Below are positions 3 to 47,880 of a stretch of 48,990 nt of DNA, piece after piece; within the stretch, counting starts at the first letter, position 1, and each line of letters opens with the position of its first letter. The stretch is from assembly GCA_037131675.1 (NCBI GenBank), contig JBAXQO010000004.1, positions 1 to 48,990 of the forward strand. Direction: 5' to 3'. The notes under the pieces are model-generated. The model ran no database searches, was not told where the DNA came from, and was given only the letters and a program-made list of their open reading frames with translations. This DNA is from a bacterium (GTDB taxonomy: Bacteria; Patescibacteriota; Minisyncoccia; Phycocordibacterales; CAIZIN01). The position numbers and the translations under genes were made by a program.

Positions 3-76
3 GCGGGTGTAGCTCAGCTGGTTAGAGCGCTTCCCTGTCACGGAAGAGGCCGTGGGTTCGAGTCCCATCACTCGCG
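3..76 (+). tRNA. tRNA-Asp(GTC)
   Basis: Acceptor GCGGGTG/CACTCGC, anticodon arm CTTCC-ctGTCac-GGAAG, GGTTCGAGTCC T-loop, discriminator G76; CCA not encoded. Confidence 0.97.
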
Positions 77-77
77 C

Positions 78-227
78 AAAAAATCAAAAGATCTGGTCTT
101 GTGCCAGGTCTTTTGATTTTTTATAGCGAGCTAGGCGGGACTCGAAAACCGGAAGGAGCGAATGCGACTGAGGTGGGGTCGAGTAAAAATTCAGCAGAAT
201 TTTATACGTGACCGAGTCCCATCACTC
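78..227 (+). repeat. tRNA-3'-associated structured element (Asp copy)
   Basis: 19-bp hairpin 78-122; GCGAG 126-130 and GGGACTCGAA 137-146 antisense to tRNA 71-75 and 57-66; GGTCG...TGACC enclosing an AGCA-loop hairpin 186-203; 15-bp direct copy of tRNA 59-73 at 213-227. Confidence 0.85.
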
Positions 228-322
228 TTGCGGTGAACAAGTGGGTTTTTATAAAAATAAATATGATATAATTCTACCAGAATATCTTCTGGTATTTCAA
301 TTTTATTATTTAATTTAACTAC

Positions 323-2962
323 ATGAAAGTTTTTTATAAGATTTGTCTTTCGTTGTTTTTTATTATTTTTTCTGCTGGTTTGGTGTCTGCCGAGACTCTT
401 CCTAGCATGCCTTATATTCCAAAAGTAAGTATATCTAACTTAAAGTTGGATAAAGATTCTTACCGTATTGGAGATGTGGTGACTGGTTCTTTTGATCTTG
501 TGAACAAGGAGAGCTTTGATGTTGAAGGTATAAACTATCAAGTCTCTTTAGTTGGTGCTTTGGATAAAAACGGAGTTCCAAATGTGGAATATGATCTTGG
601 TACTACTACACCGATTGCTGTTTCCCCTAAGACAAAACAACATGTTGCATTTAAATATAATTTAAGAAATGCTCCCAATGATACCGCAGCCGGAATATTA
701 CTCTCTCTTGTTATGAATAATGGGATAGAGCTTTCTTGGAAAAGTTCTCCTGTAAAAATTATTGGTGGAGTTTCCATTCTTACTCCTGTGAATGCTTTTA
801 TTAAATTTGATGGTAAAAAGTTTGAGCTACAACAGGGTCCGACTGTTTCTTCAGACAAGGAAACAAACTTTAGTGTTTCTTTTTTTAATGAAAGTAAGGA
901 TGTGTACAATTTACATACAACCATGGTTTTGCAAGACAAATCAATGGTAGATGTACCAGATTTTAAGCCCGTTTTGTCGACTCCAGTCAAGGTTTTGGCC
1001 TTCTCAACAACGACAATAACTTCTGTTTTACCGACAAAAGGTTTAGTGCCTGGTGTGTATCTTGCCAAGTTTACTTTCTCTGATGATAAAGATGTTTCCA
1101 GGGCTCCGGTTTTATATGCGAGATATATAGTTGGAGGTGATATGGTTTCTATTGTGAATGTTACTTCTGGTACTGTTTTGCCAGCAAAAGCAGACGATAC
1201 TCTAAATGTAGATATTGCTTATACTGGTAGGCCTTTGGATATTACTTCTAACAATAGTTCCTCCACAACAACAGCAAATATTAGTGTTGTTGTAAAAAAT
1301 GAAAAGAATGAGACGGTTTTGAATTATAATGAAGAAAAGCAATTTGGTCTTTTTGGAGTTATTAATATTTCTGGAAATATAAACAAACCAGCAGAATCTT
1401 TAACGGCTGAAGTTACTGTAACTAAAGGTGGTAATGAAATACTTGCTAGCTATAAAAATAAAATTATTTTTAGTGACATATACTCTGGTAAAAAAACAAA
1501 CTCCGACGGTCAATATGTTGAGGAGGTAAATACGCCTCCGGTTAAATCTAATAAATATATTTTTGTTTTGTACGGAATTGCGATTTTGTTATTTATAATT
1601 GCTGTTATTGTTTTGGTTGTTATCCGGAAAAAAAGATTAGCTGCAACTTTAATATTGGTTGGTGTGAGTTTGTTTTCTTACTCGGCACACGCTGATTTTA
1701 TTGTCGTTTCATCCCAAAACGCAGGTGTGGTAGTAGATGGTCAGGAATACGGAAGAGCTCCTGTTGTTACTGGAGATCTTTCACCTGATATTTTGTATCC
1801 GGGGGAACCATATAGTGTTTCTGGCACCATCCAAAACTGGGCTTGTAATAATTCATATTCTGATGTAAATGTTTTGGGTTATGTGACTAGTGAAAACGTT
1901 TTGTTATCACAGAGTGATAAGGTGTCTACTCCATTTAATGCGAATCATGGCAGTTATGTACATTCTACCAGATTTGCTTCAGATAGAAATATTAAGGCTC
2001 CAACTGTTCCTGATACATATTCTTTTAAATTAGATGTAACATCTCGTATGTATTGGGATGGAAATGTTTACTCTGGGTATCAAAGTCGTACCTTTGGATT
2101 TTTCCCATTCACTGTTGTTTCTGATTCAATAAATAACTTGTCATATATGTGTAATAGTGGGACATCTACTGTCTTAAGTTGGTCTCCTATTGTACCTGCA
2201 GACGGGTATAGCGTGGTGGTTAGTGATAATTTAAAAACCATAAGAGATACAGTGTCTGTAAGTTCTTATCAATTTAATTCTGATAGTGAAAAAGATTACA
2301 ATGCAATTGTTAAACCTTGCCAAGGCGACTTTTGTGGTAAGGCAACTTCGATTGTAACTAGGTGCGCAGGAGAGTGTGTGTCAAATACAAGTCGAGTTTG
2401 TTCTACCTCTGATCCTGATAAGATTTTTGATAATTGTGGGAAGGTGGTGGATACTTGTTCCGGAGGAGATATTTGCTCTGGTGGTATGTGTACAAAAACA
2501 ACAGTAAGTGCTGATAAAAATAAAAATCAATGTAATCTTAGCGCCTCATCAACAGCAATATATGATAACAACGGTAAATTTGTAAAAACTTGTCCAAGTG
2601 GTGAAGCTTGTTTTGATGGTTACTGTACATCAATCTCTTCTCTTTCTAGTGACCCTGCAAAAATAAATCTACGTGGAAGAGTTACAACAAATGATATGTC
2701 AGCGCCATGGAAGACCGCATCTCCTGTTGCAAATGTTATTGTAAGTAAGGGTGGGAAACTAGATCTAGACTGGGTTGTTACAGGTAGTTTTTCAGGAATG
2801 ACATGTACAACTAATAATATAAATTCATCAATTGGTTATGGCGGAACTTGGACTACTGGTGTAAACAATGAGACAACTTCTTATTCGATAACTTGTAAAA
2901 ATGCCTACGGTACCGACACAAAGACTGTGAAATCTATTGTTTATCAAACCTCAGAGTATTAG
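323..2962 (+). CDS. Large exported/membrane-anchored protein with central TM hairpin and Cys-rich C-terminal half
   Basis: 879-aa ORF; N-terminal signal peptide (VSA/E); TM at ~413-434 then RKKR plus a second hydrophobic segment ending SAHA; about 17 Cys in the C-terminal half; TGATATAAT upstream at 264-272. Confidence 0.85.
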   Translation: MKVFYKICLSLFFIIFSAGLVSAETLPSMPYIPKVSISNLKLDKDSYRIGDVVTGSFDLVNKESFDVEGINYQVSLVGALDKNGVPNVEYDLGTTTPIAVSPKTKQHVAFKYNLRNAPNDTAAGILLSLVMNNGIELSWKSSPVKIIGGVSILTPVNAFIKFDGKKFELQQGPTVSSDKETNFSVSFFNESKDVYNLHTTMVLQDKSMVDVPDFKPVLSTPVKVLAFSTTTITSVLPTKGLVPGVYLAKFTFSDDKDVSRAPVLYARYIVGGDMVSIVNVTSGTVLPAKADDTLNVDIAYTGRPLDITSNNSSSTTTANISVVVKNEKNETVLNYNEEKQFGLFGVINISGNINKPAESLTAEVTVTKGGNEILASYKNKIIFSDIYSGKKTNSDGQYVEEVNTPPVKSNKYIFVLYGIAILLFIIAVIVLVVIRKKRLAATLILVGVSLFSYSAHADFIVVSSQNAGVVVDGQEYGRAPVVTGDLSPDILYPGEPYSVSGTIQNWACNNSYSDVNVLGYVTSENVLLSQSDKVSTPFNANHGSYVHSTRFASDRNIKAPTVPDTYSFKLDVTSRMYWDGNVYSGYQSRTFGFFPFTVVSDSINNLSYMCNSGTSTVLSWSPIVPADGYSVVVSDNLKTIRDTVSVSSYQFNSDSEKDYNAIVKPCQGDFCGKATSIVTRCAGECVSNTSRVCSTSDPDKIFDNCGKVVDTCSGGDICSGGMCTKTTVSADKNKNQCNLSASSTAIYDNNGKFVKTCPSGEACFDGYCTSISSLSSDPAKINLRGRVTTNDMSAPWKTASPVANVIVSKGGKLDLDWVVTGSFSGMTCTTNNINSSIGYGGTWTTGVNNETTSYSITCKNAYGTDTKTVKSIVYQTSEY

Positions 2963-2974
2963 CTAGTGGATATA

Positions 2975-3018
2975 AAATAAAATCCTCAATTAAAAGTTGG
3001 GGATTTTATTTTTTTTGG
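2975..3018 (+). terminator. Intrinsic terminator
   Basis: AAAATCCTCAA-ttaaaag-TTGGGGATTTT followed by a T-run, just after the stop at 2962. Confidence 0.7.
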
Positions 3019-3096
3019 TTAATAAAAATTGGATTGAATTTATATAAATAAATTAATAAAAAAGACATAACAAGTAAAATTTGATATTATTTTTAC

Positions 3097-3549
3097 ATGA
3101 ATGATAAACCACTTAGTCTAGGGGAAATTAGAAGTTTACGAAAACCTATACGAAACGTAAATATCGAGCATAAAGAAAAGCTAACCAAACTTGAAAAGTT
3201 CGCTGTTTGGGTGACAGAGAACATTGGAACAATGGGTTTCTTTTTCTTTATATTATTTTTTAATGCTATATGGATAGTTTGGAATGTTCTAGCCCCAAAG
3301 GAAATGGTTTTTGATCCAGGGTGGAGTTTTCTTATCCTTCTCTTTATAAACAACATATTACAAATTCTTTTCATGCCACTTATTATGGTAGGGCAGAACC
3401 TTCAGGGAAGGCATTCTGAAGCTAGGGCAGAAGCTGATTTTGAAGTTAATACTAAAGCTGAGAGAGAAATAGAAGCAATTCTTTTACATCTTGAAAATCA
3501 AAATGAGGGAATACTAGAGATTATTAATAAATTAGATCAGAAAAAATAA
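3097..3549 (+). CDS. DUF1003-family membrane protein
   Basis: Two TM segments and the LIMVGQN...RHSEARAEADFEVNTKAE motif typical of DUF1003. Confidence 0.85.
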   Translation: MNDKPLSLGEIRSLRKPIRNVNIEHKEKLTKLEKFAVWVTENIGTMGFFFFILFFNAIWIVWNVLAPKEMVFDPGWSFLILLFINNILQILFMPLIMVGQNLQGRHSEARAEADFEVNTKAEREIEAILLHLENQNEGILEIINKLDQKK

Positions 3550-3553
3550 AATC

Positions 3554-4201
3554 ATGACGACTAAAATGAAACAACAGAGGCTTAATGGTCTTGGTGACGG
3601 TATTTTTTCAATCGTTATGACATTGCTTGTGTTGGAATTTAAGGTTCCATTGTTAGACGGACAGGTTACCGATTTAATGTTATGGCAAAATCTTGGAAAA
3701 CTTTGGCCTATATTTATAAGTTTTATTTTAAGTTTTGCTCTCTTGTTTACGTATTGGCGCGCACATCATTTTCTTGTTTCGGTATATGCAAAATCTGTAA
3801 CTGTGGGTTTAGCAAATCTTAATGCTCTTTTTTTCTTTTTAATTACGCTGATTCCGTTCAGTGCTCACTTGCTTGGCGTTTATAATCAGACGAGAGTAGC
3901 AATTGTTGTCTATGGTTTAAATATTATATGTATAGGGATAACACTTTTCTGGATGAGAGAGCATATAGAGCATACTGAGTCTATAGAAAAAGTCGCAATT
4001 TCAAAACATGAATATGTGAGTGGGTATGTACGAACTGTTTTTCCTGTTATTGCTGCGTGTGTTGCAATTATAGTTTCTTTTTATAGTACAGAATTATCCA
4101 TTTTTGTATTTACTGGTTCAATACTATTTAATCTTTTACCTGCATCAATGAATCCAATATATAGTGGATTAAATGGGGTAATGGAAAAGGTTGTTGGATA
4201 G
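3554..4201 (+). CDS. TMEM175-family (DUF1211) potassium channel
   Basis: RLNGLGDGIFSIVMTLLVLE N-terminal signature, YWRAHH motif, six TM segments. Confidence 0.85.
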   Translation: MTTKMKQQRLNGLGDGIFSIVMTLLVLEFKVPLLDGQVTDLMLWQNLGKLWPIFISFILSFALLFTYWRAHHFLVSVYAKSVTVGLANLNALFFFLITLIPFSAHLLGVYNQTRVAIVVYGLNIICIGITLFWMREHIEHTESIEKVAISKHEYVSGYVRTVFPVIAACVAIIVSFYSTELSIFVFTGSILFNLLPASMNPIYSGLNGVMEKVVG

Positions 4202-4257
4202 TTTGAAAAAAGCCTTAAAATATATTACTATTCATCGGTGTTTGTATTTTTGCAAAC

Positions 4258-4330
4258 GCCGTTGTAGCTCAATCGGTAGAGCACTCCATTGGTAATGGGG
4301 AGGTAGTGAGTTCGAAACTCATCAACGGCT
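4258..4330 (+). tRNA. tRNA-Thr(GGT)
   Basis: Acceptor GCCGTTG/CAACGGC, anticodon arm CTCCA-ttGGTaa-TGGGG, GTTCGAAAC T-loop. Confidence 0.95.
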
Positions 4331-4347
4331 CCTTATAAGGTTATTAG

Positions 4348-4418
4348 GCCAGTATAGTTCAGTGGCAGAACACTACTTTCGTAAAGTAGGAACGTGAGTT
4401 CGATTCTCACTCCTGGCT
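4348..4418 (+). tRNA. tRNA-Thr(CGT)
   Basis: Acceptor GCCAGTA/TCCTGGC (one T:C mismatch), anticodon arm CTACT-ttCGTaa-AGTAG, GTTCGATTC T-loop. Confidence 0.9.
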
Positions 4419-4499
4419 CAAAAATAGGCTTTTAAGTAAAAACTTGCATTATTTTAGAGATATGGTAATGTCATCTCAGGTTAAATTTTAAGCATTTTT

Positions 4500-4576
4500 G
4501 GGGCCGGGGGTAGTCCTCCTGTCCTGGCCGCATCTCCTACTGCACTCCCGCGGCATTTCTTCCTGCCCTCGGTCCC
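4500..4576 (+). ncRNA. GC-rich structured ncRNA candidate (possibly a degenerate SRP RNA)
   Basis: 14 consecutive pairs between 4500-4513 and 4563-4576 (3 G-U); inner GCCGC/GCGGC helix; possible promoter TTGCAT (4444) with TGgTAATGT (4463-4471). The SRP helix-8 motif is not present. Confidence 0.35.
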
Positions 4577-4690
4577 AAAAAGTTCTTTCTCCAGAGCCCC
4601 CCCCCGGAGCTCCCCCAAAAGACCCGTCGCCCAAACACTCCCCCAAAGTGTACAGGCGACGGGTCATAATTTTTGATATAATCGTTTTTA

Positions 4691-5566
4691 ATGAATGAAG
4701 AGCTGCAAAAAAAAATAGAAGAACTAGAAGCTCAGATGTACGAGTCTCACTTTTGGGATGATAAAATCAGGGCACAGGCAATACTTAAAGAAATCTCAGA
4801 TCTTAAAGAAAAACTTGCTGGGCATGGAAAATATGATAAAGGTGACGCTATCATGAATATACTTTCTGGTGCTGGGGGAACGGATGCAGAAGATTTTTCG
4901 CAGATACTTTTTTCAATGTATACAAAATATATCACCAACAAAAGATGGGGGTATAGAGTGTTACATTCTCATGAAAATGACCATGGTGGATTTCGTAATA
5001 TAACAATTGAAATTTTAGGTAGGAATGCATATGGTACTCTAAAAAATGAGACAGGTGTCCATAGACTTGTTCGCATTTCTCCTTTCAATGCAAAGCAGCT
5101 AAGACACACATCTTTTTCTCTTGTCGAAGTTATTCCCAAGTTTGAAAAACAAGATGCTGAAATAAATATCAATCCAGATGATATAAGAGTTGAGTTTACT
5201 CGGTCTGGAGGACCGGGCGGACAAAATGTAAACAAACGAGAAACTGCGGTACGTATAGTTCATATTCCTACAAATATTTCAGTTCACTGTGATGTTGAAA
5301 GATCTCAAGGTCAGAACCGAGAAAAGGCCATGGAAATACTTAAAGCTAAGCTCTATGTTCTTGAAGAAAATCGACTTAAAAAAGAATCAGAAGGTATGCA
5401 GGTTGCTAAGTCTACAGATATTGAATGGGGAAGCCAGATACGTTCCTATGTTCTTCACCCATATAAAATGGTTAAGGACCACCGTACAAATGTTGAAACT
5501 GCCAAAGTTGATAATGTTTTGAATGGAGATTTGGACTTATTCTTGGAGGCTGAACGTGAATTGTAA
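4691..5566 (+). CDS. prfB: Peptide chain release factor 2, N-terminally shortened
   Basis: GVHRLVRISPF (SPF peptide anticodon), SGGPGGQNVNK (GGQ), WGSQIRSYVLHPY; 291 aa in a single frame. Confidence 0.95.
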   Translation: MNEELQKKIEELEAQMYESHFWDDKIRAQAILKEISDLKEKLAGHGKYDKGDAIMNILSGAGGTDAEDFSQILFSMYTKYITNKRWGYRVLHSHENDHGGFRNITIEILGRNAYGTLKNETGVHRLVRISPFNAKQLRHTSFSLVEVIPKFEKQDAEININPDDIRVEFTRSGGPGGQNVNKRETAVRIVHIPTNISVHCDVERSQGQNREKAMEILKAKLYVLEENRLKKESEGMQVAKSTDIEWGSQIRSYVLHPYKMVKDHRTNVETAKVDNVLNGDLDLFLEAEREL

Positions 5567-5622
5567 ACAGAATCTAAATAGAAAATAGGTGTATTTTGTG
5601 ATAGAATATTCTTTGTATAATT

Positions 5623-6303
5623 ATGATTTACTTCGACAATGTTAGTAAAATTTATGATGACGATTCCGTTGGTCTCCATGGAGTTACGCTTAAAATAGAA
5701 CCAAAAGAATTTGTTTCCATTGTTGGACATTCTGGTGCTGGTAAGACAACTTTGCTAAAAATGATTTTAGCTGAAGAAAAGCCTACAGAAGGTAAGGTCT
5801 TTTTTGAATCTACAAACATTCACGATATAAGAAAGAAGCACATGCCTGACTACCGCAGACATATCGGTGTTATTTTTCAGGATTTTCGTTTGTTACCACA
5901 CAAAACTGCATATGAAAATATTGCTTTTGCTATGGAGGTGGCAGGACGAGATGAAGAGGAGATTCAAGCTGATGTAACTCATGTGTTAGATCTTGTGGGA
6001 CTTAGTAGAAAGATGTGGAGCTTTCCGCACCAGCTTTCTGGTGGTGAGAAACAGCGTGTAGCTATTGCTAGAGCTATTGTGAATCAGCCAGATTTAATTA
6101 TTGCCGATGAACCTACTGGAAATCTTGATCCGGAAAATACTTTTGAGGTAATACAATTATTTAAAAAAATCAACGATCTTGGAACAACTGTGGTACTCAC
6201 CACTCACAACAAAGGAGTAATAGACTCATTGAATAGGCGAGTTATTACGATGGAAGCCGGAAAAGTGGTTCGTGATGAAGTTAAGGGAGGTTACGTTCTG
6301 TAG
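5623..6303 (+). CDS. ftsE: Cell division ATP-binding protein FtsE
   Basis: GHSGAGKT Walker A, IFQDFRLL, LSGGEKQRV; directly upstream of ftsX. Confidence 0.93.
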   Translation: MIYFDNVSKIYDDDSVGLHGVTLKIEPKEFVSIVGHSGAGKTTLLKMILAEEKPTEGKVFFESTNIHDIRKKHMPDYRRHIGVIFQDFRLLPHKTAYENIAFAMEVAGRDEEEIQADVTHVLDLVGLSRKMWSFPHQLSGGEKQRVAIARAIVNQPDLIIADEPTGNLDPENTFEVIQLFKKINDLGTTVVLTTHNKGVIDSLNRRVITMEAGKVVRDEVKGGYVL

Positions 6304-6335
6304 TTTTAATAAAAATTAAATTTTAAAAAGAGTAT

Positions 6336-7256
6336 ATGATGTGGGTTAATACAAAAAGAATATTCAAAGCTGGTTTCATAGCGTTTTGTAGAAATGCTTT
6401 CGTTTCTCTTTCGGCAGTCCTCATCATGGTGGTTACTCTTTTCTTCATTGGTTGCATAATTTTTTCAAGTGCACTTCTCAAGTCTTCTCTGCAAACCATT
6501 CGAGATAAGGTTGATATAAACGTATATTTTGTTACAAATTCTCAGGAGTCAGATATTTTACTTTTAAAAAAGACTCTGGAAAAAATGCCAGAAGTTTCAA
6601 AAGTTGAATACATCTCTCAAGACCAAGCTCTAGATAATTTTCGCAAGCGACATGAGAATGATCAGATTACACTACAGGCACTCGATGAACTCGGTGACAA
6701 TCCACTGGGTGCTGTGTTAAACGTGAAGGCAAAAGAAACATCTCAATATGAATCAATTGCCAATTTCCTTAATCAACAAAACCTTGCACAAGGAGATAGT
6801 TCAATAATAGATAAGATTAACTATTATCAAAACAAAGATGCTATTGATCGCTTAACAAAGCTTATTGATTCAGGGCAAAAAATTGGAGTAGTCCTTGCGA
6901 TTATCTTTGCTCTTATTTCTATTTTGATTACATTTAACACCATTCGGCTTGCAATATTTACAGCAAAAGATGAAATTTCTGTTATGCAGTTGGTGGGTGC
7001 AAACCATATATACATAAGGGGGCCATTTATGGTTGGAGGAATCCTTTATGGTTTAACAGCCGGTATCATTACTCTCATTCTTTTCTATCCATTTACTTAT
7101 TGGCTCAACACTTACACAGAAACATTTTTTGCTGGTGATGGAATATTTACTTATTATATTCATAACTTTGGCCAATTGTTTTTGATTATTATAGGATCGG
7201 GTATTGCTATTGGTGCAGTATCAAGTTTTCTAGCAGTGCGAAGACATTTAAACTAA
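6336..7256 (+). CDS. ftsX: Cell division permease FtsX
   Basis: FtsX topology, DELGDNPLGAVLNVKA, EISVMQLVGA...IRGPF. Confidence 0.93.
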   Translation: MMWVNTKRIFKAGFIAFCRNAFVSLSAVLIMVVTLFFIGCIIFSSALLKSSLQTIRDKVDINVYFVTNSQESDILLLKKTLEKMPEVSKVEYISQDQALDNFRKRHENDQITLQALDELGDNPLGAVLNVKAKETSQYESIANFLNQQNLAQGDSSIIDKINYYQNKDAIDRLTKLIDSGQKIGVVLAIIFALISILITFNTIRLAIFTAKDEISVMQLVGANHIYIRGPFMVGGILYGLTAGIITLILFYPFTYWLNTYTETFFAGDGIFTYYIHNFGQLFLIIIGSGIAIGAVSSFLAVRRHLN

Positions 7257-7363
7257 TATTTTGTTTATCAAAAAGTCACAGAAAGTTAGTTTTGGCAAAA
7301 TAGACAAACCAAACAGAAGCGTTACAATTAATGGAAATTAATTTACAAGAATAATTTCACAGA

Positions 7364-16451: not shown

Positions 16452-16636
16452 GTTGCAAGACTTGGAATCTCTCCCTCGACTAAAAATTTTCCGTCGAAAA
16501 TTTTTGTCTGGGCACCGCCTCATGAAATTTTCTGCTGAAAATTTCTATTCCGGCGTTCGAGTCCAAGGCGAAAGTGCTCCCAGCACTTTCTTCCCGCAGC
16601 AAATAAAAAACGGCTCTATTGAGCCGTTTTTTATTT
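16452..16636 (-). repeat. tRNA-3'-associated structured element (Gln copy)
   Basis: 16-bp hairpin 16601-16636; antisense to the tRNA 3' end at 16592-16600 and 16556-16567, split by a 24-nt hairpin insert; AGCA-loop (16524-16545) and GACG-loop (16482-16505) hairpins; 13/16 direct copy of the tRNA end at 16454-16469. Confidence 0.88.
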
Positions 16637-16637
16637 G

Positions 16638-16708
16638 CTGCGGGACTTGGACTCGAACCAAGATACACGGTTCCAGAAACCGTAGTCCTACCATTAGACG
16701 ATCCCGCA
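16638..16708 (-). tRNA. tRNA-Gln(CTG)
   Basis: On - strand acceptor TGCGGGA/TCCCGCA, anticodon arm ACGGT-ttCTGga-ACCGT, GGTTCGAGTCC. Confidence 0.95.
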
Positions 16709-30360: not shown

Positions 30361-32400
30361 TTACACTCCAAGAATAACTGGGATAACGATAGGGCGTTTA
30401 GCTGTTTGTTGGAATAGGTATTTACCTACAGCATCTGCGACTTCGTCTTTAACGTAGTCGAAGTTGATCGGATGTTGACCTTGAACGGAGTCTTCAACTG
30501 TTTTTTTGATGATAAAGCGCGCTTGGCGCAGAAGTTCTTGAGATTCGCGCAGGTATACGAATCCACGAGAAATAATATCTGGTGACTTTTTGATTTTGCC
30601 AGTTGTTGTGTTTACACTTGCGACAACAACGAAGATACCATCTTCTGAAAGTGTCTGTCGGTCTCGAATAACTGCTTCTTGAACGTTTCCAATTGAGAAA
30701 CCGTCCACAGCAACGAGTCCATCTCCAGCTTTTTCTTTTCGTACTGATATTTTTTCTCCGTCTGTAATTTCAACAATTGAACAGTCGTCTGGAATTGCAA
30801 TATTTTCTTTGGGTGTTCCAATAGATTCTGCAAGATCTGCATGGAGACGAATGTTGTAGTGGCTTCCATGAACTGGCATGAAGAATTTTGCCTTTATTTT
30901 TTTATGAAGCCACTCGATTTCACCTCGGTTTGCATGACCTGTTGAGTGAATGAACACATCTGATGTTCTATAGTGAATTATTTTAGCACCTTGTCTTGCA
31001 ATATTGTCTTTTAGTTTTGCAACAGATTTTTCATTTCCTGGAATAATAGAAGATGAGAACAAAACAGTGTCTCTGTCGGTAAGGTTAAAATATTTGTGTG
31101 TTTTTGTTGCCATACGCATAAGTGCGGCAAACTCATCTCCTTGTGCCCCTGTGGCCAAAACAACAATTCTATCTGGTGGAAAGTTTGGAATATCTTTTCC
31201 ATCAATAATTGTTCCTTTTTTAACTTCAAGCATTCCTGCAATTTGTGCTATTTCTATGTTTTCTTTCATTGCACGTCCTTCAAGTACGATTTTCTTGCCA
31301 AGATTTTCAGCTATCTGAATGATTTTCATTGTGCGCTGGAATTGAGATGCAAAAGTTCCAATGATCAAGCGTCCTTTTATATCACGTATTATTTTTTCTA
31401 GGTTTTCGTGAACTAGTGATTCTGGGGTAGAGAAGCCAGGGTTTTCTATGTTTGTTGAATCGGCCATTAGGAGTAATGGTTTTTTGTTGTCGAATATTGA
31501 GTACTCGGCTTTTTCTCTGTCTGTTGGTTCTCCATCTACATGTTCAAGTTTGAAGTCTCCTGGTGTTACAATTTGTCCCCATTCTGTATCAATTGCTATA
31601 CCCATTGAGTCTGGAATAGTATGAGTAACACCAAAGAGATGGATGATTGTGTTACCGAGTTTTATTGTGTCGTTTTTTTCAACAATTTTAATATCAAGAG
31701 CTGGTGTATGAGGAAACTCGACTTGTCGTTTCTGTATCATAAGAGCTGTTAGATTTCGCGTGTAGAGTGGCGGATTACCTATGCGAGGCATTACATAAGG
31801 AATACCTCCAATGTGGTCTAGGTGGGCGTGGGTAATCAAAATTCCGCGAATTTTTTCTTTACGCTCCTCGAGATACTGAGTATTTGGAATTATATAGTCA
31901 ATACCTGGTGTATTGCTATCTTTAAATTGGAAACCACAATCGATAAGAATGATATCGTCTTTGTTTTCGATTGCTGTCATATTTCGGCCGATTTCCTCTA
32001 CTCCTCCCAATGGGATTATACGGATTACATTATCCTTTACTACAGGAATATTATCTTTTGCTCGTTGTGGTTGAGTCTGGGGATTTTTTGGAAAAGATGG
32101 CATTTTGGGACGGTGATTTCCACGAGAAAGAGGACGTCTTTGCTGAGTTTGAGTTGGTCGAAAATCATTTGTTCTAGGTGTCTGTGTTTGGTTCTGAACA
32201 CGCTGCATGGTGTGGTGTGGCTGAACCTCTTGTTGTGCTGTACGAATATCTGGCCGACGAGGGTTATTGTTGTACGGAGCTCGATTAGCAGGATTAAATC
32301 TCCTTGGTGCAGGCTGAATACGTGCGTGATAAGGAGCTCGTCTATGTGGCTCTCCTTGGGGGGTAGGGTTTCCTGTTTTTGTATCTGTTGTATCTGTCAT
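30361..32400 (-). CDS. rnj: Ribonuclease J with long N-terminal low-complexity extension
   Basis: IIPLGGVEEIGRNMT, ITHAHLDHIGG, TGAQGDEFAAL, STGHA, PDIISRGFVY. Confidence 0.95.
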   Translation of the reverse strand: MTDTTDTKTGNPTPQGEPHRRAPYHARIQPAPRRFNPANRAPYNNNPRRPDIRTAQQEVQPHHTMQRVQNQTQTPRTNDFRPTQTQQRRPLSRGNHRPKMPSFPKNPQTQPQRAKDNIPVVKDNVIRIIPLGGVEEIGRNMTAIENKDDIILIDCGFQFKDSNTPGIDYIIPNTQYLEERKEKIRGILITHAHLDHIGGIPYVMPRIGNPPLYTRNLTALMIQKRQVEFPHTPALDIKIVEKNDTIKLGNTIIHLFGVTHTIPDSMGIAIDTEWGQIVTPGDFKLEHVDGEPTDREKAEYSIFDNKKPLLLMADSTNIENPGFSTPESLVHENLEKIIRDIKGRLIIGTFASQFQRTMKIIQIAENLGKKIVLEGRAMKENIEIAQIAGMLEVKKGTIIDGKDIPNFPPDRIVVLATGAQGDEFAALMRMATKTHKYFNLTDRDTVLFSSSIIPGNEKSVAKLKDNIARQGAKIIHYRTSDVFIHSTGHANRGEIEWLHKKIKAKFFMPVHGSHYNIRLHADLAESIGTPKENIAIPDDCSIVEITDGEKISVRKEKAGDGLVAVDGFSIGNVQEAVIRDRQTLSEDGIFVVVASVNTTTGKIKKSPDIISRGFVYLRESQELLRQARFIIKKTVEDSVQGQHPINFDYVKDEVADAVGKYLFQQTAKRPIVIPVILGV

Positions 32401-39508: not shown

Positions 39509-39764
<256 letters not shown>

Positions 39765-40314: not shown

Positions 40315-40381
40315 AATAGGTTATAGACACTCACTTTTTCATGAAGGTCCTTTACAGGGCCGCTTGGGTGTTTTTGAACAC

Positions 40382-40390: not shown

Positions 40391-40461
40391 CGTGGGCTAT
40401 CCTTTTTTAGGAGTACAATAAATGAACAAAAATTTTAACAGCGGTTAACTACATCATACGT

Positions 40462-42765: not shown

Positions 42766-42790
42766 CTCTAAATTTAGTTGTTAGTTTTTT

Positions 42791-42821
42791 AAGAAAACCC
42801 TTATGTCATAAGGGTTTTCTT
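42791..42821 (+). terminator. Intrinsic terminator after nrdJ
   Basis: AAGAAAACCCTTAT-gtc-ATAAGGGTTTTCTT. Confidence 0.75.
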
Positions 42822-42861
42822 ATTGTGGACTTTTTGATTAAAACGTGATATAATTAGGGGC

Positions 42862-43192
42862 GAGTCATGTCAGACAATCGCTCTGCGAAAGCAGGGAGGA
42901 AAGTCCGAACACGAACTTTTCGCAAGAAAAGTAGCAGGGTAGCGGGTAACACCCGTCGCGTCCATTGGATAAGTGGCGAGAGGTGCGAGCAGTGACGTCT
43001 AAGCCGAAAGGCGAAGAATTCCTTCGGGAATAATTTTGTGGAAACGCAAAAGTGAAACGGCCAAATCCTTACCTTCGTGCAAGGCCGTGTCCGTCTTTGA
43101 CGGAAGTGCCGCTTGAGGGTGGTGGCAACACTACTCCCAGATAAATGATTGTCTCCAGCAATGGAACAGAATTCGGCTTATCGACATGGTTT
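42862..43192 (+). ncRNA. rnpB: RNase P RNA
   Basis: GAGGAAAGTCC near the 5' end and AACAGAATTCGGCTTA near the 3' end; P1 GAGTCATGTC/GACATGGTTT; extended -10 TGATATAAT at 42846-42854. Confidence 0.95.
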
Positions 43193-43204
43193 ATTCACAT
43201 GATT

Positions 43205-43375
43205 ACACCCCGCACAACTTACGTTGTGCGGGGTGTGTCGCGTTCATTTTTTTGAAACTCTTTCTCGATGAAAGTTTCTCCGAGCACGAAAATTTTTTGC
43301 TAAAAATTTTCTCTGTACAGCGCCGTCGCACTTCCCAAGGCTCGGTTAAACTTCCACACTCGACGAGTTTCAAAA
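43205..43375. repeat. Perfect hairpin plus nested palindromic element with AGCA-loop hairpin after rnpB
   Basis: 14-bp perfect stem 43205-43236; nested TTTTGAAACTC/GAGTTTCAAAA (43250/43375), CCGAGC/GCTCGG, and a 10-bp stem 43288-43311 whose loop reads AGCA on the - strand. Confidence 0.7.
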
Positions 43376-43418
43376 GATTTCTCTGTTTTTGAAAATGGAA
43401 GTATAATGAATCGGATTT

Positions 43419-45098
43419 ATGATGCAAAGAATATTTTCTTACTTAAACAAAGAGATTAAGGGTCTACATGAGGCTGCATATTTTCTTGCAATCTTTACAT
43501 TTCTCTCCCAAGTACTCGGCCTTGTTCGTGATAAACTTTTAGCACACTTCTTTGGTGCAAGTGCAATGCTTGATGTTTATTATGCATCATTTAGAATTCC
43601 AGATTTAATTTTTGTCACCATATCTTCGCTCGTTGCAGTTTCGGCGCTCATTCCTTTTGTTGTTCGTGAAAATAAAAAAGGAAAAGAAAAAGAAGAACAT
43701 TTCATAAATAGTGTCTTTACAGTTTTTTCTTTTTCAATGGTACTTGTGATTGGTTTGGTGGCTATTTTTGTTCCAGTCCTATTAAAGTTTCTTGTTCCAG
43801 GAATTTACAATGGTACATATCAGTCAACCTTGATATTAATGACAAGGATTTTACTTCTATCACCTTTGCTTTTAGGGGTTTCTAACTTGCTTTCAAGTGT
43901 AAATCAATCCAGGAAAATATTTATTGTAAGTGCGATAAGTCCATTGCTTTATAATCTTGCAATTATATTTGGGATTGTTTTTCTGTATCCAAAGTATGGT
44001 CTAATTGGGCTAGTCATTGGTGTTATCTTCGGTTCTCTCCTCCATGTAATAATTCAAATACCTTCGATTGCTGTTTGTGGTATTAAGCTTTCGTTAACAA
44101 GAAATATAGACTGGAAAAGTGTTCGAGAAGTTATTACACTTTCTATTCCTAGAACATTTACATTGGCAGGGAATCAACTCTCAATGACCTCACTATTCTA
44201 CCTAGCTTCATTTATGACCGCGGGATCTATTTCTGTTCTGGCCCTTTCATATAATCTTCAATCTGTTCCGCTTGCTATTATCGGTCTTAGTTATTCATCG
44301 GCAGCATTTCCAACTCTTGCAAAACTATATTCAGAAGGAAAGAAGTCTGAATTTATCAGTCATGTCGTATCCGCAGCTCGACATATTATTTTCTGGTCTA
44401 TTCCTGTCGCTATTCTTTTTGTTGTTCTTCGTGCGCAGATTGTTCGTGTAATATTTGGCTCTGGTAATTTCAATTGGGACAACACACGTCTTACCGCGGC
44501 TTCACTTGCACTCTTTTCTCTTTCAGTCACAGCTCAAAGCCTAGAACTCCTTTTTGTAAGAGGTTTTTATTCTGCTGGTATGACAAAAAAACCTCTTGTT
44601 ATAAGTACGATTACGTCTGTGTTAGCTTTCGTATTTGCAATAGGGGGAGTGTTGATATTTAATTCGTTTTCTACTTTTAGAAGCATATTTGAAAGTATCT
44701 TCCGTGTAAGTGGAGTGCCCGGAACTGTCGCCTTAATGCTTCCTTTGGCTTTTACTCTAGCTGCACTTATAAATATAGTTTGGTTGTGGAGATTGTTCGA
44801 AAAAGATTTTTCTGGTTTTGGAAAAACTCTCCTACGAACTTTGTTTGATTCACTCGTCTCTTCATTGGTTATGGGTTATGTTGCATATATAAGTTTGGAT
44901 TTCTTTGGAAAGTTTTTGAAGCTTTCTACATTGTCTGGAATATTTTTGCAGGGTTTTATCTCTGGTATCTTAGGAATAATTGCAGGCACTTCAGTTTTAT
45001 TCTTTTTAAAGAATGCTGAAATTAAAGAAATAGCCAAAGCCCTTCATCATAAGATTTTGGGTACAAAAACCGTCGTACCAGAACAATCAGGTCTTTAA
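43419..45098 (+). CDS. murJ: Lipid II flippase MurJ/MviN
   Basis: SQVLGLVRD...FG, ASFRIPDL, SPLLYNLAII, LVRGFYS-like motif; about 14 TM segments. Confidence 0.92.
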   Translation: MMQRIFSYLNKEIKGLHEAAYFLAIFTFLSQVLGLVRDKLLAHFFGASAMLDVYYASFRIPDLIFVTISSLVAVSALIPFVVRENKKGKEKEEHFINSVFTVFSFSMVLVIGLVAIFVPVLLKFLVPGIYNGTYQSTLILMTRILLLSPLLLGVSNLLSSVNQSRKIFIVSAISPLLYNLAIIFGIVFLYPKYGLIGLVIGVIFGSLLHVIIQIPSIAVCGIKLSLTRNIDWKSVREVITLSIPRTFTLAGNQLSMTSLFYLASFMTAGSISVLALSYNLQSVPLAIIGLSYSSAAFPTLAKLYSEGKKSEFISHVVSAARHIIFWSIPVAILFVVLRAQIVRVIFGSGNFNWDNTRLTAASLALFSLSVTAQSLELLFVRGFYSAGMTKKPLVISTITSVLAFVFAIGGVLIFNSFSTFRSIFESIFRVSGVPGTVALMLPLAFTLAALINIVWLWRLFEKDFSGFGKTLLRTLFDSLVSSLVMGYVAYISLDFFGKFLKLSTLSGIFLQGFISGILGIIAGTSVLFFLKNAEIKEIAKALHHKILGTKTVVPEQSGL

Positions 45099-45147
45099 TA
45101 TTGAATCCCTCAACAAAAGGGCTTATTTCTGCTAATATGAGCCACAC

Positions 45148-46947
45148 ATGCAACATATTAGAAACTTTAGCATCATAGCTCACATTGATCACGGCAAGTC
45201 TACTCTTGCCGATCGTATGCTTGAAATCACACATACAGTAGAAGCACGAAAAATGCACGACCGAGTTCTTGATGATATGGAACTAGAAAAGGAGCGCGGT
45301 ATTACTATAAAAATGCGACCAGTGCGAATGGAATATAAAAATCCAAAAGACGGTCAAAATTACGTTTTAAACCTGATTGATACTCCTGGGCACATTGATT
45401 TCTACTACGAGGTATCGCGTGCACTAAAGGCTGTAGAGGGCTCTATTTTGCTAGTAGATGCTACTCAAGGTGTGCAGGCACAAACACTCACTACGCTTGC
45501 AATGGCACGCGAGACCGGTCTTGTAATAATTCCCGTTATCACAAAAATTGATTCACCGCTTTCTAGGGTGGATGAAGTGAAGTATGAAATGATAAGACTC
45601 CTTGATTGTAAGGAAGAGGACATTGTTTGTGTTTCAGGAAGAACAGGTGAGGGAGTAGATGAGCTTCTCCAGGAAGTGATTCGTCGGGTTCCTTCTCCTA
45701 AAACAACACACTCGGGACCAAAAGATATTCGTGCTCTTATTTTTGATTTTCAATATTCAACACATACTGGAGTAATTGTTTTCGTGCGACTTCTTGATGG
45801 AAAAATAAAGAAAAATGATCCTCTTTTGTTTAAAATTGCTAATGAGAAATTTAGCGCTCTTGAAGTTGGAACGTTTAATCCGCAAGAAACTCCAAAAGAT
45901 GAACTCTCAGCTGGGGAAATTGGCTACATTGTGACAGGTATAAAACGCCCAGGCATTGCCTCTGTGGGAGACACTATCACACATTCAACACACCCACTTC
46001 CAGAACTTCATGGATATATGACACCGAAGCCTGTAGTGTGGGCTTCTATATATTCTGAAAGTCAGGATGATTTTAATAATCTTCGCCAAGCGCTTGAACG
46101 TTTGAGACTTTCTGACTCATCATATGCTTTTGAAGAGGAATCCTCAGGAACTCTTGGGCGTGGATTTAGGTGTGGTTTTCTAGGAATGCTTCACTTGGAA
46201 ATTATTACTGAAAGACTTCGACGAGAATTTAACTTAGAGCTAATTGTTACAACGCCAAGCATTACCTATATTGTTACAAATAAACAAGGGAAAAAAGAAA
46301 TTATATATTCTCCTTCAAAATTTCCAGAGTATGGTGAGGTGGCTGAGGTGGAAGAACCATGGGTTAGTATGACCATTATTACTCCTCCGGCATATATTTC
46401 TCCAATAATGCAGACTCTTTTTGATCACGAAGCAGAAATTGGAGATTCTGAAAACTTTGGTGATGATAGAGCCTCAATCAAAGTTATGATGCCTCTACGT
46501 GAATTAATGAGGAACTTTTTTGATGAAATAAAAAGTGTTACTTCTGGCTACGCTTCGCTTTCCTACGAGATAGGGGAATTCAGAAAGGCAGACGTATGCA
46601 GATTGGATATTTTGATAAACGGTGAACCAATGCTTGCCTTTACGAGAATTGTTTCGAAACGTCGAGTTGTGGAAGATGCTCGTAAGGCGGCAGAAAAACT
46701 TCAGAAAGTTATGCCTCAACAAATGATTATTGTTAAAATTCAAGCGCAGGCATTAGGAAAAATTATCGCTTCTGAAACGCTTTCAGCCTTAAGAAAGGAT
46801 GTTACTCAACATATGTACGGTGGAGACATTACCCGAAAAATGAAGCTTCGTGAAAAGCAGAAAAAAGGGAAGAAAAAGATGCAGGAAATGGGTGCTGTAA
46901 ATATTCCTCATGAAGTATTTTTGAAGATGGTGAAAGGAGGGGAGTAA
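45148..46947 (+). CDS. lepA: Elongation factor 4 (LepA)
   Basis: IRNFSIIAHIDHGKSTLADR, GFRCGFLGMLH, YGGDITRKMKLREKQKKGKK. Confidence 0.98.
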   Translation: MQHIRNFSIIAHIDHGKSTLADRMLEITHTVEARKMHDRVLDDMELEKERGITIKMRPVRMEYKNPKDGQNYVLNLIDTPGHIDFYYEVSRALKAVEGSILLVDATQGVQAQTLTTLAMARETGLVIIPVITKIDSPLSRVDEVKYEMIRLLDCKEEDIVCVSGRTGEGVDELLQEVIRRVPSPKTTHSGPKDIRALIFDFQYSTHTGVIVFVRLLDGKIKKNDPLLFKIANEKFSALEVGTFNPQETPKDELSAGEIGYIVTGIKRPGIASVGDTITHSTHPLPELHGYMTPKPVVWASIYSESQDDFNNLRQALERLRLSDSSYAFEEESSGTLGRGFRCGFLGMLHLEIITERLRREFNLELIVTTPSITYIVTNKQGKKEIIYSPSKFPEYGEVAEVEEPWVSMTIITPPAYISPIMQTLFDHEAEIGDSENFGDDRASIKVMMPLRELMRNFFDEIKSVTSGYASLSYEIGEFRKADVCRLDILINGEPMLAFTRIVSKRRVVEDARKAAEKLQKVMPQQMIIVKIQAQALGKIIASETLSALRKDVTQHMYGGDITRKMKLREKQKKGKKKMQEMGAVNIPHEVFLKMVKGGE

Positions 46948-46990
46948 AAAAAGAGTGTTTTTACTTAGTTTTCATTTGGGTATTATTCAA

Positions 46991-47038
46991 GAAAATTCCC
47001 CGAGTTTTGGCAAAGCCCAAACTCGGGGAATTCATTTC
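46991..47038. terminator. Long hairpin, probable bidirectional terminator
   Basis: AATTCCCCGAGTTT/AAACTCGGGGAATT 14-bp stem between lepA and a convergent small ORF. Confidence 0.65.
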
Positions 47039-47059
47039 TTAATTATCTTTAAATCTTCA

Positions 47060-47170
47060 CTATCTCCACAGAGCTGGGAAATAAAGCAGTATCATGCTTA
47101 ATATAATGATTACACAAAAGACTGCGAATGTTCGGCGGATTATTTTTTTGTTTTGCTGTTTGAATAACAT
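47060..47170 (-). CDS. Small single-pass membrane protein (36 aa, not in ORF track)
   Basis: MLFKQQNKKIIRRTFAVFCVIIILSMILLYFPALWR; ATG 47170 to TAG 47060; basic N-terminus followed by a ~20-aa hydrophobic stretch. Confidence 0.6.
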   Translation of the reverse strand: MLFKQQNKKIIRRTFAVFCVIIILSMILLYFPALWR

Positions 47171-47254
47171 GATAAGAACACTATACCATAAATTAATCCT
47201 AATTCCAGTTGTTGAAAAGAGTCATTTTTAAATACTTTTGATATAATAAAAAAT

Positions 47255-47632
47255 GTGGAATTTCGTGATAGGCAAAAAATGTATCAGCTAGTGTATTCAA
47301 AAGTAACTATTTTGATTACAGTGTTCTTTATTATTGTCCTTATTCCTGGAGTTTACGGTATTTATAAAAAAGTAAGTGAGAGTGAAAAAGACAGAAAAGC
47401 TGCCGAGCGAGAGCTTGCAGATTTGGAAACACGTGAGCAAATGCTTGTATTGAAAGTTGACCGAGGTAATACAGACAGAGGACTTGAGGAACAGATTCGT
47501 GAAAAATATAATGTTGCAAAAGAAGGGGAATCAGTTATTGTGTTAGTTGATAAACCTATTGCTGCATCCACCACACAAAATGAAGCCAATGTATTTAAGG
47601 CTGTGTGGCAAAGGTTGAAAAAAGCATTTTAA
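47255..47632 (+). CDS. FtsB/DivIC-like septum formation initiator
   Basis: One TM, a coiled coil, then LEEQIREKYNVAKEGESVIVLV; GTG start 7 nt after TGATATAAT. Confidence 0.8.
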   Translation: MEFRDRQKMYQLVYSKVTILITVFFIIVLIPGVYGIYKKVSESEKDRKAAERELADLETREQMLVLKVDRGNTDRGLEEQIREKYNVAKEGESVIVLVDKPIAASTTQNEANVFKAVWQRLKKAF

Positions 47633-47635
47633 AAA

Positions 47636-47706
47636 GCGGGTATTGTTTAGTGGTAGAATGCGACCTTCCCAAGGTTGAGACGCGAGTTCGATTCTCGCTA
47701 CCCGCA
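47636..47706 (+). tRNA. tRNA-Gly(CCC)
   Basis: Acceptor GCGGGTA/TACCCGC, anticodon arm CGACC-ttCCCaa-GGTTG, GTTCGATTC; discriminator A. Confidence 0.95.
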
Positions 47707-47707
47707 C

Positions 47708-47880
47708 AAATAAAAAACGGCATGTGCCGTTTTTTTTATTTGTGCGGGTAAGAAAGCTCCTGTGGAGCTTTCGTGCGAGAATCGAAGGGCGTAGCGGGAC
47801 CCAAGCCAGCAGGCTTGGGAGCGAGCCAGGGTCGTGAAAATTTTGGTTTGACGAAACCAAAATTATTCCTGACCGATTTT
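47708..47880 (+). repeat. tRNA-3'-associated structured element (Gly copy)
   Basis: Hairpin 47708-47741; antisense GTGCGGGTA 47742-47750 and GCGAGAATCGAA 47775-47786 split by a 24-nt hairpin insert; AGCA-loop 47800-47819; GGTCG...TGACCGA with an 11-bp GACG-loop hairpin 47839-47864. Confidence 0.88.

Follow-up and report, generated by a model that had tools for sequence, protein, structure and literature searches.

We analyzed a 48,990-nt stretch of patescibacterial DNA (contig JBAXQO010000004.1 of assembly GCA_037131675.1, positions 1 to 48,990 of the forward strand; hereafter the window), which is contig C4 of a 745,660-bp assembly with 33 contigs and 43 tRNA genes (G000). The tRNA genes for Asp, Gln, Ser and Gly in the window are each followed by a short structured unit, and we show that all four units belong to one family of insertion cassettes, which are gene-less and about 110-200 bp long. 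The cassettes lodge in the 3' end, that is in the last ~20 bases, of conserved and highly expressed genes, namely those for tRNAs, tmRNA, 5S rRNA and the ribosomal proteins S9 (rpsI) and L11 (rplK). Each cassette supplies a replacement gene end, and the resident end is pushed downstream, where it decays. The family is apparently undescribed. For the cassettes, Rfam 15 yielded no family match but only sub-threshold hairpin noise, with the window scanned in gathering mode and 20 units in E-value mode, and a full-text literature search found no description of such cassettes, in agreement with a first-pass annotation of the window, which knew of no named family with this layout.

Six tRNA genes and an RNase P RNA gene were located in the window with ARAGORN and Rfam, and the cassettes share one order of parts (Table 1). 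We refer to the tRNA segment from the T-loop to the discriminator as X; X_new is the gene-adjacent copy, X' an antisense copy and X_old a displaced direct copy. X_new is followed by a bidirectional terminator (A-tract, GC hairpin, T-tract), which is present at Asp, Gln and Gly and missing at Ser, where the interval from the tRNA to X' contains none. Then come X', often divided by a hairpin (hp0), which in tRNA-type copies marks the acceptor/T-stem boundary, a structured core and the decaying X_old. The first part of X', X'acc, is the reverse complement of the acceptor 3' strand and continues straight on from the descending terminator arm; it is exact over 9 nt at Gln and Gly and over 5-6 nt at Asp and Ser. 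The second part, X'T, is exact over 10-13 nt at the four loci and terminates in TCGAA because it copies the 3' strand of the T-stem and the T-loop in antisense. The consensus of hp0 is AGAAAG-stem-loop-stem-CTTTCG; 6 nt stand in its place at Asp, and the orthologous Asp cassette of a relative (G002, locus L052) retains the full hairpin. Together, the terminator arms, X' and the tRNA end form one long palindrome, and in the fold of the Gln copy hp0 sits at the exact position 7/49 junction of the mimicked acceptor-T minihelix. X_old is exact over 15 nt at Asp, agrees at 14/18 positions at Gln and 12/18 at Ser, and is an internally deleted remnant at Gly. Inspection of the sequence downstream of the two tRNA-Thr genes at 4258-4419 revealed no cassette. 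The first-pass annotation had described the trailer hairpin, its absence at Ser, the antisense acceptor and T-arm segments with a spacer or hairpin between them, the two-hairpin core and the bare tRNA-Thr genes, and this layout was recovered at all four loci. It had not listed the direct, decaying copy of the tRNA end, and it had described a single core, where the family has at least four core types.

Evidence that the gene end is brought in with the cassette comes from a protein gene. Besides tRNA genes, the ends of rpsI and rplK are targets in G000, and in relatives units also stand behind tmRNA and 5S rRNA genes. At rpsI, the gene end GTCAAAACGATAG, including the stop codon, is followed by a terminator, X' (ATCGTTTTGAC), a type-A core, the gene end once more (GTAAACGATAA) and another terminator; rplK has two units behind it and hence three copies of its gene end. 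We compared the rpsI locus with contigs from other samples (L001-L004) that encode an identical S9 protein. L001-L003 carry the same cassette as G000, with the type-A core and the X_new GTCAAAACGATAG. L004 shares the old terminator and the downstream DNA with these three, but has another cassette, terminator and core. Its X_new, CCACAATGGAGTAAACGATAA, uses the Ser codon AGT, the displaced resident end (...GGTCAAAACGATAA) has TCA, and X' matches the imported end and not the resident one. This foreign synonymous end, together with an X' matching it, indicates that the replacement end travels with the cassette and is not copied from the resident gene.

Occupancy of the same gene differs between species of one genus, all of these assemblies being fragmented metagenome bins. 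The tRNA-Gly(CCC) gene is filled in G000 and empty in G002, G004 and G007, and tRNA-Gln(TTG) is empty in G000 and G004 and filled, with different cores, in G002, G003 and G005; tRNA-Asp is filled in G000 and G002 (X_old 19/19) and stands without a cassette in G003. The newest insertion adjoins the gene, so that repeated hits build tandem stacks. Such stacks of two complete units were found at tRNA-Leu(CAA) and tRNA-Trp of G003, where the second unit's terminator comes after the first unit's X_old. In young copies (X_old of 19/19 nt at Phe, 15 nt at Ser-ACT and 12 nt at Met), X_old is followed by a second terminator that is unlike the first. In G000, a 5.2-kb island with a large serine recombinase separates the tmRNA gene (C3 35942-36324) from an older unit at C3 ~30505-30700; a reading of this unit as an orphan was rejected, as it is specific for tmRNA and was displaced by the later island. 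At the 5S rRNA gene of G007 (L092), the duplicated block is exact over 55 nt and includes the resident trailer and terminator, which, unlike L004, resembles copying in situ or a re-integration inside one lineage. The Gln and Ser units of the window are fixed and invariant within the sampled population: together with the rplK locus, they are identical in all same-species contigs compared. An exact empty/filled pair was found for none of the window loci. The first-pass annotation had listed, among three options, a non-autonomous mobile element that copies its target upon inserting. In view of insertion polymorphism, stacking, non-tRNA targets and a copy number of 0-64, the mobile element is the best fit of the options. 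The copying clause is only partly right: the rpsI end of L004 was brought in, and the 5S end of L092 was duplicated over 55 nt along with the resident terminator. As a separate observation, the cassette-free tRNA-Asp of G003 (C2:29926-30237; L077) is broken directly after the anticodon by an insert of ~236 nt, a putative small group I intron by its position and size.

The antisense segment is tailored to its gene throughout G000. Of its tRNA genes, 40 are followed by no less than 200 nt of sequence, and in 21 of these the 260 nt downstream contain a segment of 9-14 nt that is exactly antisense to part of the gene's own last 24 nt. Shuffled trailers reached 9 nt in 6 of 800 trials, and no own-tail match of at least 9 nt was found for 55 distinct tRNAs taken from three other genomes of Patescibacteria, of which one belongs to the same class and two to the same phylum. 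Since T-arms resemble each other, we judged tailoring on the acceptor-specific part, which matched the cognate tRNA in 15/40 cases compared to 39/1560 non-cognate pairs. The earlier proposal of one family programmed per tRNA is supported, with copies at many tRNAs and in related genomes, although the family is not restricted to tRNA genes and also occupies protein-gene, tmRNA and 5S rRNA ends. More than 25 different targets occur in one genome, protein-gene ends and 5S rRNA being among the target types. Short cassette forms exist as well, in which X' is only 3-7 nt long and hp0 is lacking (Val-GAC, Lys-CTT, Arg-TCT, Gly-TCC). A covariance model built from 12 type-A cores of G000 (R1) matched 25-28 copies in this genome and 0-64 in each of 31 genomes from the order. 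Across the phylum, the type-A core was found in 7 of 201 sampled genomes, so that it is almost limited to this order.

ARAGORN predicts a tRNA with the anticodon UUA ("tRNA-Stop") at C14:16842-16915 (-) of G000 and at locus L081 (1128-1201) of G003, so that it is kept in two species of the genus. Its T arm is the same as that of tRNA-Arg(GCG) and its type-B cassette is near-identical to that of the Arg gene, with one base different in X'acc; it may have arisen by duplication of a tRNA together with its cassette, or be a tRNA resembling an ochre suppressor. At C12:374-543 of G000, a type-A core lies upstream of tRNA-Arg(CCT); in front of this core stands a degenerate version of the tRNA's 5' half that reaches to the anticodon loop (GCCTTTATAGTTCAATAAATAGAAAGCCCGTCC), and the locus looks like a variant replacing the tRNA 5' half. 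At C23:9900-10100, 3-4 tandem cores, each terminating in ...GTGACAGTAG, have no tRNA nearby. The motif GGTTCCAACTTTCAC was considered as a repeat family and rejected as such.

The core is conserved as a fold, not as a sequence. RNAalifold derived a structure of 31 pairs from the 12 type-A cores of G000, and 21 of these pairs show compensatory changes. Alignments fitted to R1 lean to the structure of this G000-derived model; in 56 copies from 11 genomes, 94.9% of the pair cells pair compared to 63.5% after shuffling and 38-55% with the partners slid, and these controls argue against an artefact. Double changes are found in 30 of the 31 pairs, and the number of compensatory cells (478) was reached by 0 of 500 shuffles. 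Covariation, which the first-pass annotation had made a touchstone, is therefore strong. G·U or U·G occupies 79 cells and A·C or C·A 10, and one position is G·U in 38 of 54 copies. This conserved G·U pairing indicates that the fold matters, as RNA or as single-stranded DNA, on the strand that reads in the same sense as the upstream gene.

At least four core types share the same flanks. Type A1 has the form AGCCGGAG-hp1-CGAGGCGG GGTCGCGAG-hp2-CTTGTGACC and type A2 the form ...GGTGCCCAGAC-hp2-AGTCGAGGGAGA; type B has its own conserved fold, type C was found behind tRNA-Cys, and a fourth kind is present at L004. The hairpin hp0 is common to different core types. A K-turn in hp1 was considered and rejected, the bulge of only 1 nt not being that of a canonical K-turn. 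Cores are not tied to targets: the nearest neighbour of a core comes from the same genome in 21 of 56 cases (6.6 ± 2.8 expected) and from the same target in 8 of 56 (2.6 expected). For example, the His core of G000 shares 91% identity with those of Leu and Trp in G003, which in turn are 100% identical to each other over a block bounded by TCGAA and GAGT.

The flanks carry additional information on mechanism. Identity to the complement of the functional tRNA end amounts to 90% for X'T and 88% for X'acc, while X_old has an identity of 64% to the tRNA end, which is close to the chance level of the best gapless match (an estimated ~50-55%). Mismatches between X' and X are often G·T, as at His in G000, at Gln in G002 and at L004. 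In tRNA T-loops, rpsI, L004 and 5S rRNA alike, X' always covers another 2-4 nt of the target on the 5' side of the duplicated X. The target bases at the junction have no motif in common (GTT/C, GCG/C, GTG/G, CTC/C and GAA/A, with the slash marking the junction), which indicates that the junction is set by pairing register. About a third of the otherwise perfect X_old copies contain a 1-2-nt insertion (AC, G, T or C) between T-loop nt 59 and 60/61, in G000 at Ser-ACT, Trp, Met, Tyr, Arg-GCG, the UUA tRNA, Lys and Ile-GAT and in relatives at L045, L072, L075, L079, L081 and L086; it could be a junction scar or a designed bulge in the X':X_old stem. Overall, conserved modules (terminator design, hp0 and core) alternate with the target-specific X_new, X'acc and X'T, which argues for some templated rewriting when a scaffold changes its target. 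Homing in the manner of diversity-generating retroelements was rejected because differences between X_new and X_old are not adenine-specific, and pairing of X' with the mature tRNA 3' end as a primer-binding site because X' runs on as the complement of the genomic trailer and not of CCA.

We looked for candidate enzymes in the 31 genomes with the profiles RVT_1, Y1_Tnp (PF01797), Resolvase, DEDD_Tnp_IS110 (PF01548) and Nop (PF01798), Pfam models that may miss divergent enzymes. The units themselves contain no open reading frame or protein gene. In G000 no match to RVT_1, Y1_Tnp or IS110 was obtained, and four large serine recombinases are present. G014, which is 99% complete and has 16 copies, contains none of RVT_1, Y1_Tnp, Resolvase and IS110, and G019, with 0 copies, has four Y1_Tnp and five Resolvase matches. 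PF01797 is absent from G000, G005, G007 and G014, the latter three of which carry 9-23 copies, and Resolvase is absent from G002 (40 copies), G005, G012, G014 and G022. PF01548 is absent from G000 and 27 of the 31 relatives; IS110 genes occur only in four genomes (G002-G005) of this genus, which is the one with the highest copy numbers, and no R1 core lies next to the four IS110 genes found, nor did Rfam give anything relevant at these loci. The co-occurring HUH/RAYT or IS110 gene envisaged in the first-pass annotation is thus missing from G000, and neither tracks copy number. Nop was found in none of the 31 genomes with a model that may miss Tas proteins. At G002:C26:5970-7170 (L138 571-1768), 88 nt separate tRNA-Met from the start of an IS110-family transposase gene, and 12 nt past this gene the T-arm of that tRNA recurs in antisense over 10 nt. 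In G028 (C2:77781-78640), an RVT_1 gene (E=3e-24) is located 165 nt from a type-A core in convergent orientation, which may reflect another gene-end target or coincidence.

In light of the arrangement of the copies, the cassettes may well integrate as folded single strands, with X' as the target-matching arm. The series of direct copy, inverted copy, loop and direct copy would be the product of a small circular or folded single strand that exchanges at one hairpin arm; a single strand would be exchanged and replication would follow, with the same topology as in attP(+) integration of CTX-phi. The circle would consist of X, terminator, X' and core, and the X':X stem would rebuild a double-stranded copy of the target, X' crossing the junction by 2-4 nt. 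The core, a structured loop of ~65-100 nt that folds only on the gene-sense strand, would serve as a handle for an enzyme provided in trans or for a host enzyme. For a circle or a fresh tandem at tRNA-Phe, the junction would be expected to read ...CGTGACC-AACCCCGGTCCTCGGCAC-AAAATAAAAAAC. We propose that only cognate insertions survive because X_new keeps the essential gene intact.

CTX-phi and other integrative mobile elements exploiting Xer (IMEX) use a folded single-stranded attP(+) hairpin, which is integrated by host XerCD at dif. Like these elements and like integron attC sites, the cassettes contain no recombinase and keep their site as a one-strand fold rather than as a sequence. As in CTX-phi and other IMEX, a hybrid site, the element, an inverted site copy, a loop of ~90 nt and a hybrid site follow each other, and the cassettes show both this order and the strand-specific fold. 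Unlike in IMEX and integrons, their targets are many unrelated gene 3' ends and not dif or attI, and, unlike in CTX-phi and other IMEX, the stem is tailored per target, an essential gene end is rebuilt and the total length is ~150 nt. Regarding the R and L boxes and extrahelical bases of attC, the 1-2 extra nt of X_old opposite X' could be extrahelical; there is no attI-like common site. Genomic islands at tRNA and tmRNA genes, prophages and cis-mobilizable elements (CIMEs) likewise insert between the T-loop and the 3' end, supply a new gene end, displace a direct repeat and stack, and gene-restoring direct repeats of up to 19/19 nt (X_new/X_old) are found in the cassettes. In contrast to these islands and CIMEs, the cassettes carry neither integrase nor cargo, display more than 25 specificities on one scaffold family, possess an internal antisense target copy and a covarying core, and are also found at protein-gene and 5S rRNA ends; no cognate integrase with one att specificity was identified. 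We place the family among the integrase-less integrative elements of the IMEX/CIME type.

Several points weigh against integration of a folded single strand. No enzyme was identified, since copy number in the 31 genomes tracks none of RVT_1, Y1_Tnp, Resolvase, IS110 and Nop, and neither a circular form nor an exact empty site was observed. This mechanism does not account for a joint rewriting of X_new and X' upon the move of a scaffold to a new target. Moreover, the perfect complementarity of X' and X_new could persist by hairpin-templated correction without any guide function, and the duplication at the 5S rRNA gene, which includes the resident terminator, fits re-integration or in-situ copying better than an imported end.

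A further, more tentative proposal is that the cassettes are self-guided programmable integration modules. The split arm X'acc-hp0-X'T, as RNA or as folded single-stranded DNA, would select the site by pairing and be rewritten from the new target with hp0 looped out, and the core would recruit a ubiquitous host enzyme or be catalytic itself. The bridge RNA of IS110, the exon- and intron-binding sites of group II introns and the guide tetranucleotides of IS200/IS605 resemble the cassettes in bearing a complement of their own insertion site and in a junction defined by pairing register. Unlike for these guide-bearing elements, no DEDD recombinase, reverse transcriptase or HUH gene is found in or near the units or in G000, and the guide of 11-22 nt addresses one target strand and pairs mostly 3' of the insertion point. 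Each of the two bridge RNA loops of IS110/IS1111 pairs with target and donor on both of their strands; for the two X' segments, the partner is one and the same strand of the target. There was no Rfam covariance-model match to a group II or group I intron, a small ribozyme or a T-box, and G000 has no reverse transcriptase. TIGR-Tas systems comprise a Nop-domain protein and regular arrays with spacers pairing with opposite strands (PMC12045711). A relationship to them was rejected, because the cassettes are solitary, both arms pair with one strand and the Pfam model of Nop, which may miss Tas proteins, matched in none of the 31 genomes.

The cassettes could alternatively be non-autonomous partners or CIME-like remnants of serine-recombinase islands, with X' as an inverted half-site or att copy and the recombinase acting in trans, which we regard as unlikely. 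The four large serine-recombinase genes of G000 lie at C12:12221-13945 (-), C18:8209-9924 (-), C3:34442-36010 (+) and C6:26143-27753 (+), and three of them run antisense into the 3' end of tRNA-Glu(TTC), tRNA-Val(TAC) or tmRNA. The C12 and C3 frames overlap the RNA gene, so that their last codons are antisense tRNA or tmRNA, and the C18 frame ends ~65 nt short of tRNA-Val. In addition, the junction of the six-gene tmRNA island lies in the T-loop, like those of the cassettes. However, the absence of Resolvase matches from G002 (40 copies), G005, G012, G014 and G022 and the five Resolvase matches of the cassette-free G019 speak against this origin, and a sequence-specific integrase would not cover more than 25 targets in one genome, protein-gene and 5S rRNA ends included. 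The islands at tRNA-Glu and tRNA-Val contain neither X' nor a core, and strand-specific conservation of G·U would be unexpected for a duplex binding site.

A fold that is specific to the sense strand, keeps its G·U pairs and contains an internal loop of tandem G·A would also suit a cis- or trans-acting RNA. According to this explanation, the antisense arm of a read-through transcript would sequester or sense the 3' end of the pre-tRNA or direct its processing, and X':X_old with hp0 would mimic the top half of a tRNA; hp0 lies exactly at the 7/49 junction of the mimicked minihelix, and X' stays matched to the tRNA while X_old decays. We consider such a role rather improbable, and the corresponding option of the first-pass annotation, a cis-acting trailer that gates maturation, is poorly supported. 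The units stand behind a canonical terminator and contain no sigma-70-like promoter, the downstream genes' own promoters remaining beyond X_old. They also follow rpsI, rplK and 5S rRNA genes, are absent from the same tRNA in sister species, from half of the G000 tRNAs and from most of the phylum, and combine several unrelated core types with one flank grammar.

Replication template switching at hairpins would require no dedicated machinery: snap-back copying would make and correct the X, X' and X segments, and gene conversion would distribute the cores. Tandem inversion duplications show the same direct, inverted, direct order, X_new, terminator and X' form near-perfect palindromes, identical cores occur in inverted tRNA loci 1.3 kb apart, and 55 nt including a terminator are duplicated at the 5S rRNA gene. 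Yet this explanation has little probability in our view. At L004, X_new is foreign and X' matches the foreign and not the resident end. G·U positions and unpaired nucleotides are conserved across the order, although arm-on-arm correction would erase G·T, and hp0 and the cores are conserved modules, not arbitrary hairpins. The GC skew is positive over the whole window and two of the four units lie on the minus strand, so that unit orientation is set by the gene and not by the direction of replication; this counts weakly against any mechanism limited to the lagging-strand template. A decoy or immunity site, in which X_old and X' form a dummy tRNA attB that diverts or blocks integrases from the functional gene, is very improbable, for although integrase islands compete for the same sites and tRNA-Val and tRNA-Glu carry islands and no cassette, the cassette at tmRNA did not protect it from a later island, X_old decays and the non-tRNA targets have no known integrase use. 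On the third option of the first-pass annotation, a structure that masks or mimics tRNA attB sites, the evidence speaks neither for nor against; large serine-recombinase islands do use the same T-loop sites in G000.

MITEs (miniature inverted-repeat transposable elements), repetitive extragenic palindromic (REP) sequences, bacterial interspersed mosaic elements (BIMEs) and the palindromic or double-hairpin repeats of organelles are similarly short, gene-less and hairpin-rich, lie at gene 3' ends and vary in copy number. Unlike in MITEs and REP sequences, the inverted repeats of the cassettes are derived from the target and not from the ends of an insertion sequence, a fixed target-site duplication is lacking, the end of the gene is replaced and no parent insertion sequence or RAYT was found. 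REP/BIME-RAYT systems and IS200/IS605 derivatives are recognized by a Y1 HUH transposase in the genome and by a palindrome with a conserved 5' tetranucleotide; the transposase is absent from G000.

If the cassettes are what they seem to be, ultra-small bacteria carry dozens of copies of a class of mobile elements that need no gene of their own and hide within the final bases of essential genes by providing these bases anew. Each copy bears the complement of its own landing site, which may represent a new route to sequence-programmed DNA insertion, and the self-guided variant would amount to a protein-less, guide-bearing mobile element that could be aimed at any gene end. Such insertions would also explain much of the unannotated intergenic structure behind Patescibacteria tRNA genes, and imported gene ends would be usable as markers of horizontal exchange. 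For annotation, caution is indicated: in these genomes, the 3' flank of a tRNA cannot be taken for a simple trailer or terminator, and repeats of tRNA ends are not always prophage att sites.

Table 1 Parts of the four cassettes and their host tRNA genes in the window. E values refer to matches of the covariance model R1.
Feature	Position	Strand	Remark
tRNA-Asp gene	3-77	+	ARAGORN, Rfam
Asp X_new, T-loop to discriminator, TTCGAGTCCCATCACTCGCG	57-76	+	cassette-supplied gene part; 15 nt exact repeat at 213-227
Asp bidirectional terminator: A-tract, hairpin, T-tract	78-123	+	direct sequence reading
Asp X': AGCGAG (antisense acceptor), CTAGGC spacer (hp0 lost), GGGACTCGAA (antisense T arm)	125-146	+	
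Asp type-A core: hp1 with GGA/GA internal loop; hp2 GGTCG...GTGACC with AGCA loop	147-213	+	E=7.9e-6
Asp X_old, CGAGTCCCATCACTCTTGCG, displaced tRNA end	213-232	+	15 nt exact, then 2-nt insertion
tRNA-Gln(CTG) gene	16637-16708	-	ARAGORN, Rfam
Gln X_new	16638-16657	-	
Gln bidirectional terminator, AAATAAAAAACGGCTC-AATA-GAGCCGTTTTTTATTT	16601-16636	-	
Gln X': X'acc GCTGCGGGA (16600-16592), hp0 AGAAAGTGCTGGGAGCACTTTCG (16591-16569), X'T CCTTGGACTCGAA (16568-16556)	16556-16600	-	9 + 13 nt exact antisense
Gln type-A2 core	16471-16555	-	E=8.2e-15
Gln X_old, AGATTCCAAGTCTTGCAAC	16452-16470	-	decayed; pairing with X' persists via G·U
tRNA-Ser(GGA) gene	39677-39764	-	ARAGORN, Rfam
Ser X_new	39678-39697	-	
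Ser X': X'acc GCGGAG (39649-39644), hp0 CCACATGCTTTGTGTGG (39640-39624), X'T GGGGATTCGAA (39625-39615)	39615-39649	-	
Ser type-A1 core	39528-39614	-	E=6.1e-21
Ser X_old, CGAATTCCCTTCCTCTCCCC	39509-39528	-	
tRNA-Gly(CCC) gene	47636-47707	+	ARAGORN, Rfam
Gly X_new	47687-47706	+	
Gly bidirectional terminator	47708-47741	+	
Gly X': X'acc GTGCGGGTA (47742-47750), hp0 AGAAAGCTCCTGTGGAGCTTTCG (47751-47773), X'T TGCGAGAATCGAA (47774-47786)	47742-47786	+	
Gly type-A1 core	47787-47874	+	E=1.4e-17
Gly X_old remnant, CGATT..CAC	47874-47884	+	internal deletion

Outside the cassettes, a C-rich and GC-rich tract (GGGGCCGGGGGTAGTCCTCC...CCCCCCCCCGGAGCTCCCCC) extends over 4485-4690 of the window, between tRNA-Thr(CGT) and an open reading frame at 4691, in a genome with 36% GC; Rfam gave no relevant match for 4400-4720, a permissive threshold included. 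The RNase P RNA at 42862-43196 belongs to bacterial class A and scores 107 bits against an Rfam gathering threshold of 100.

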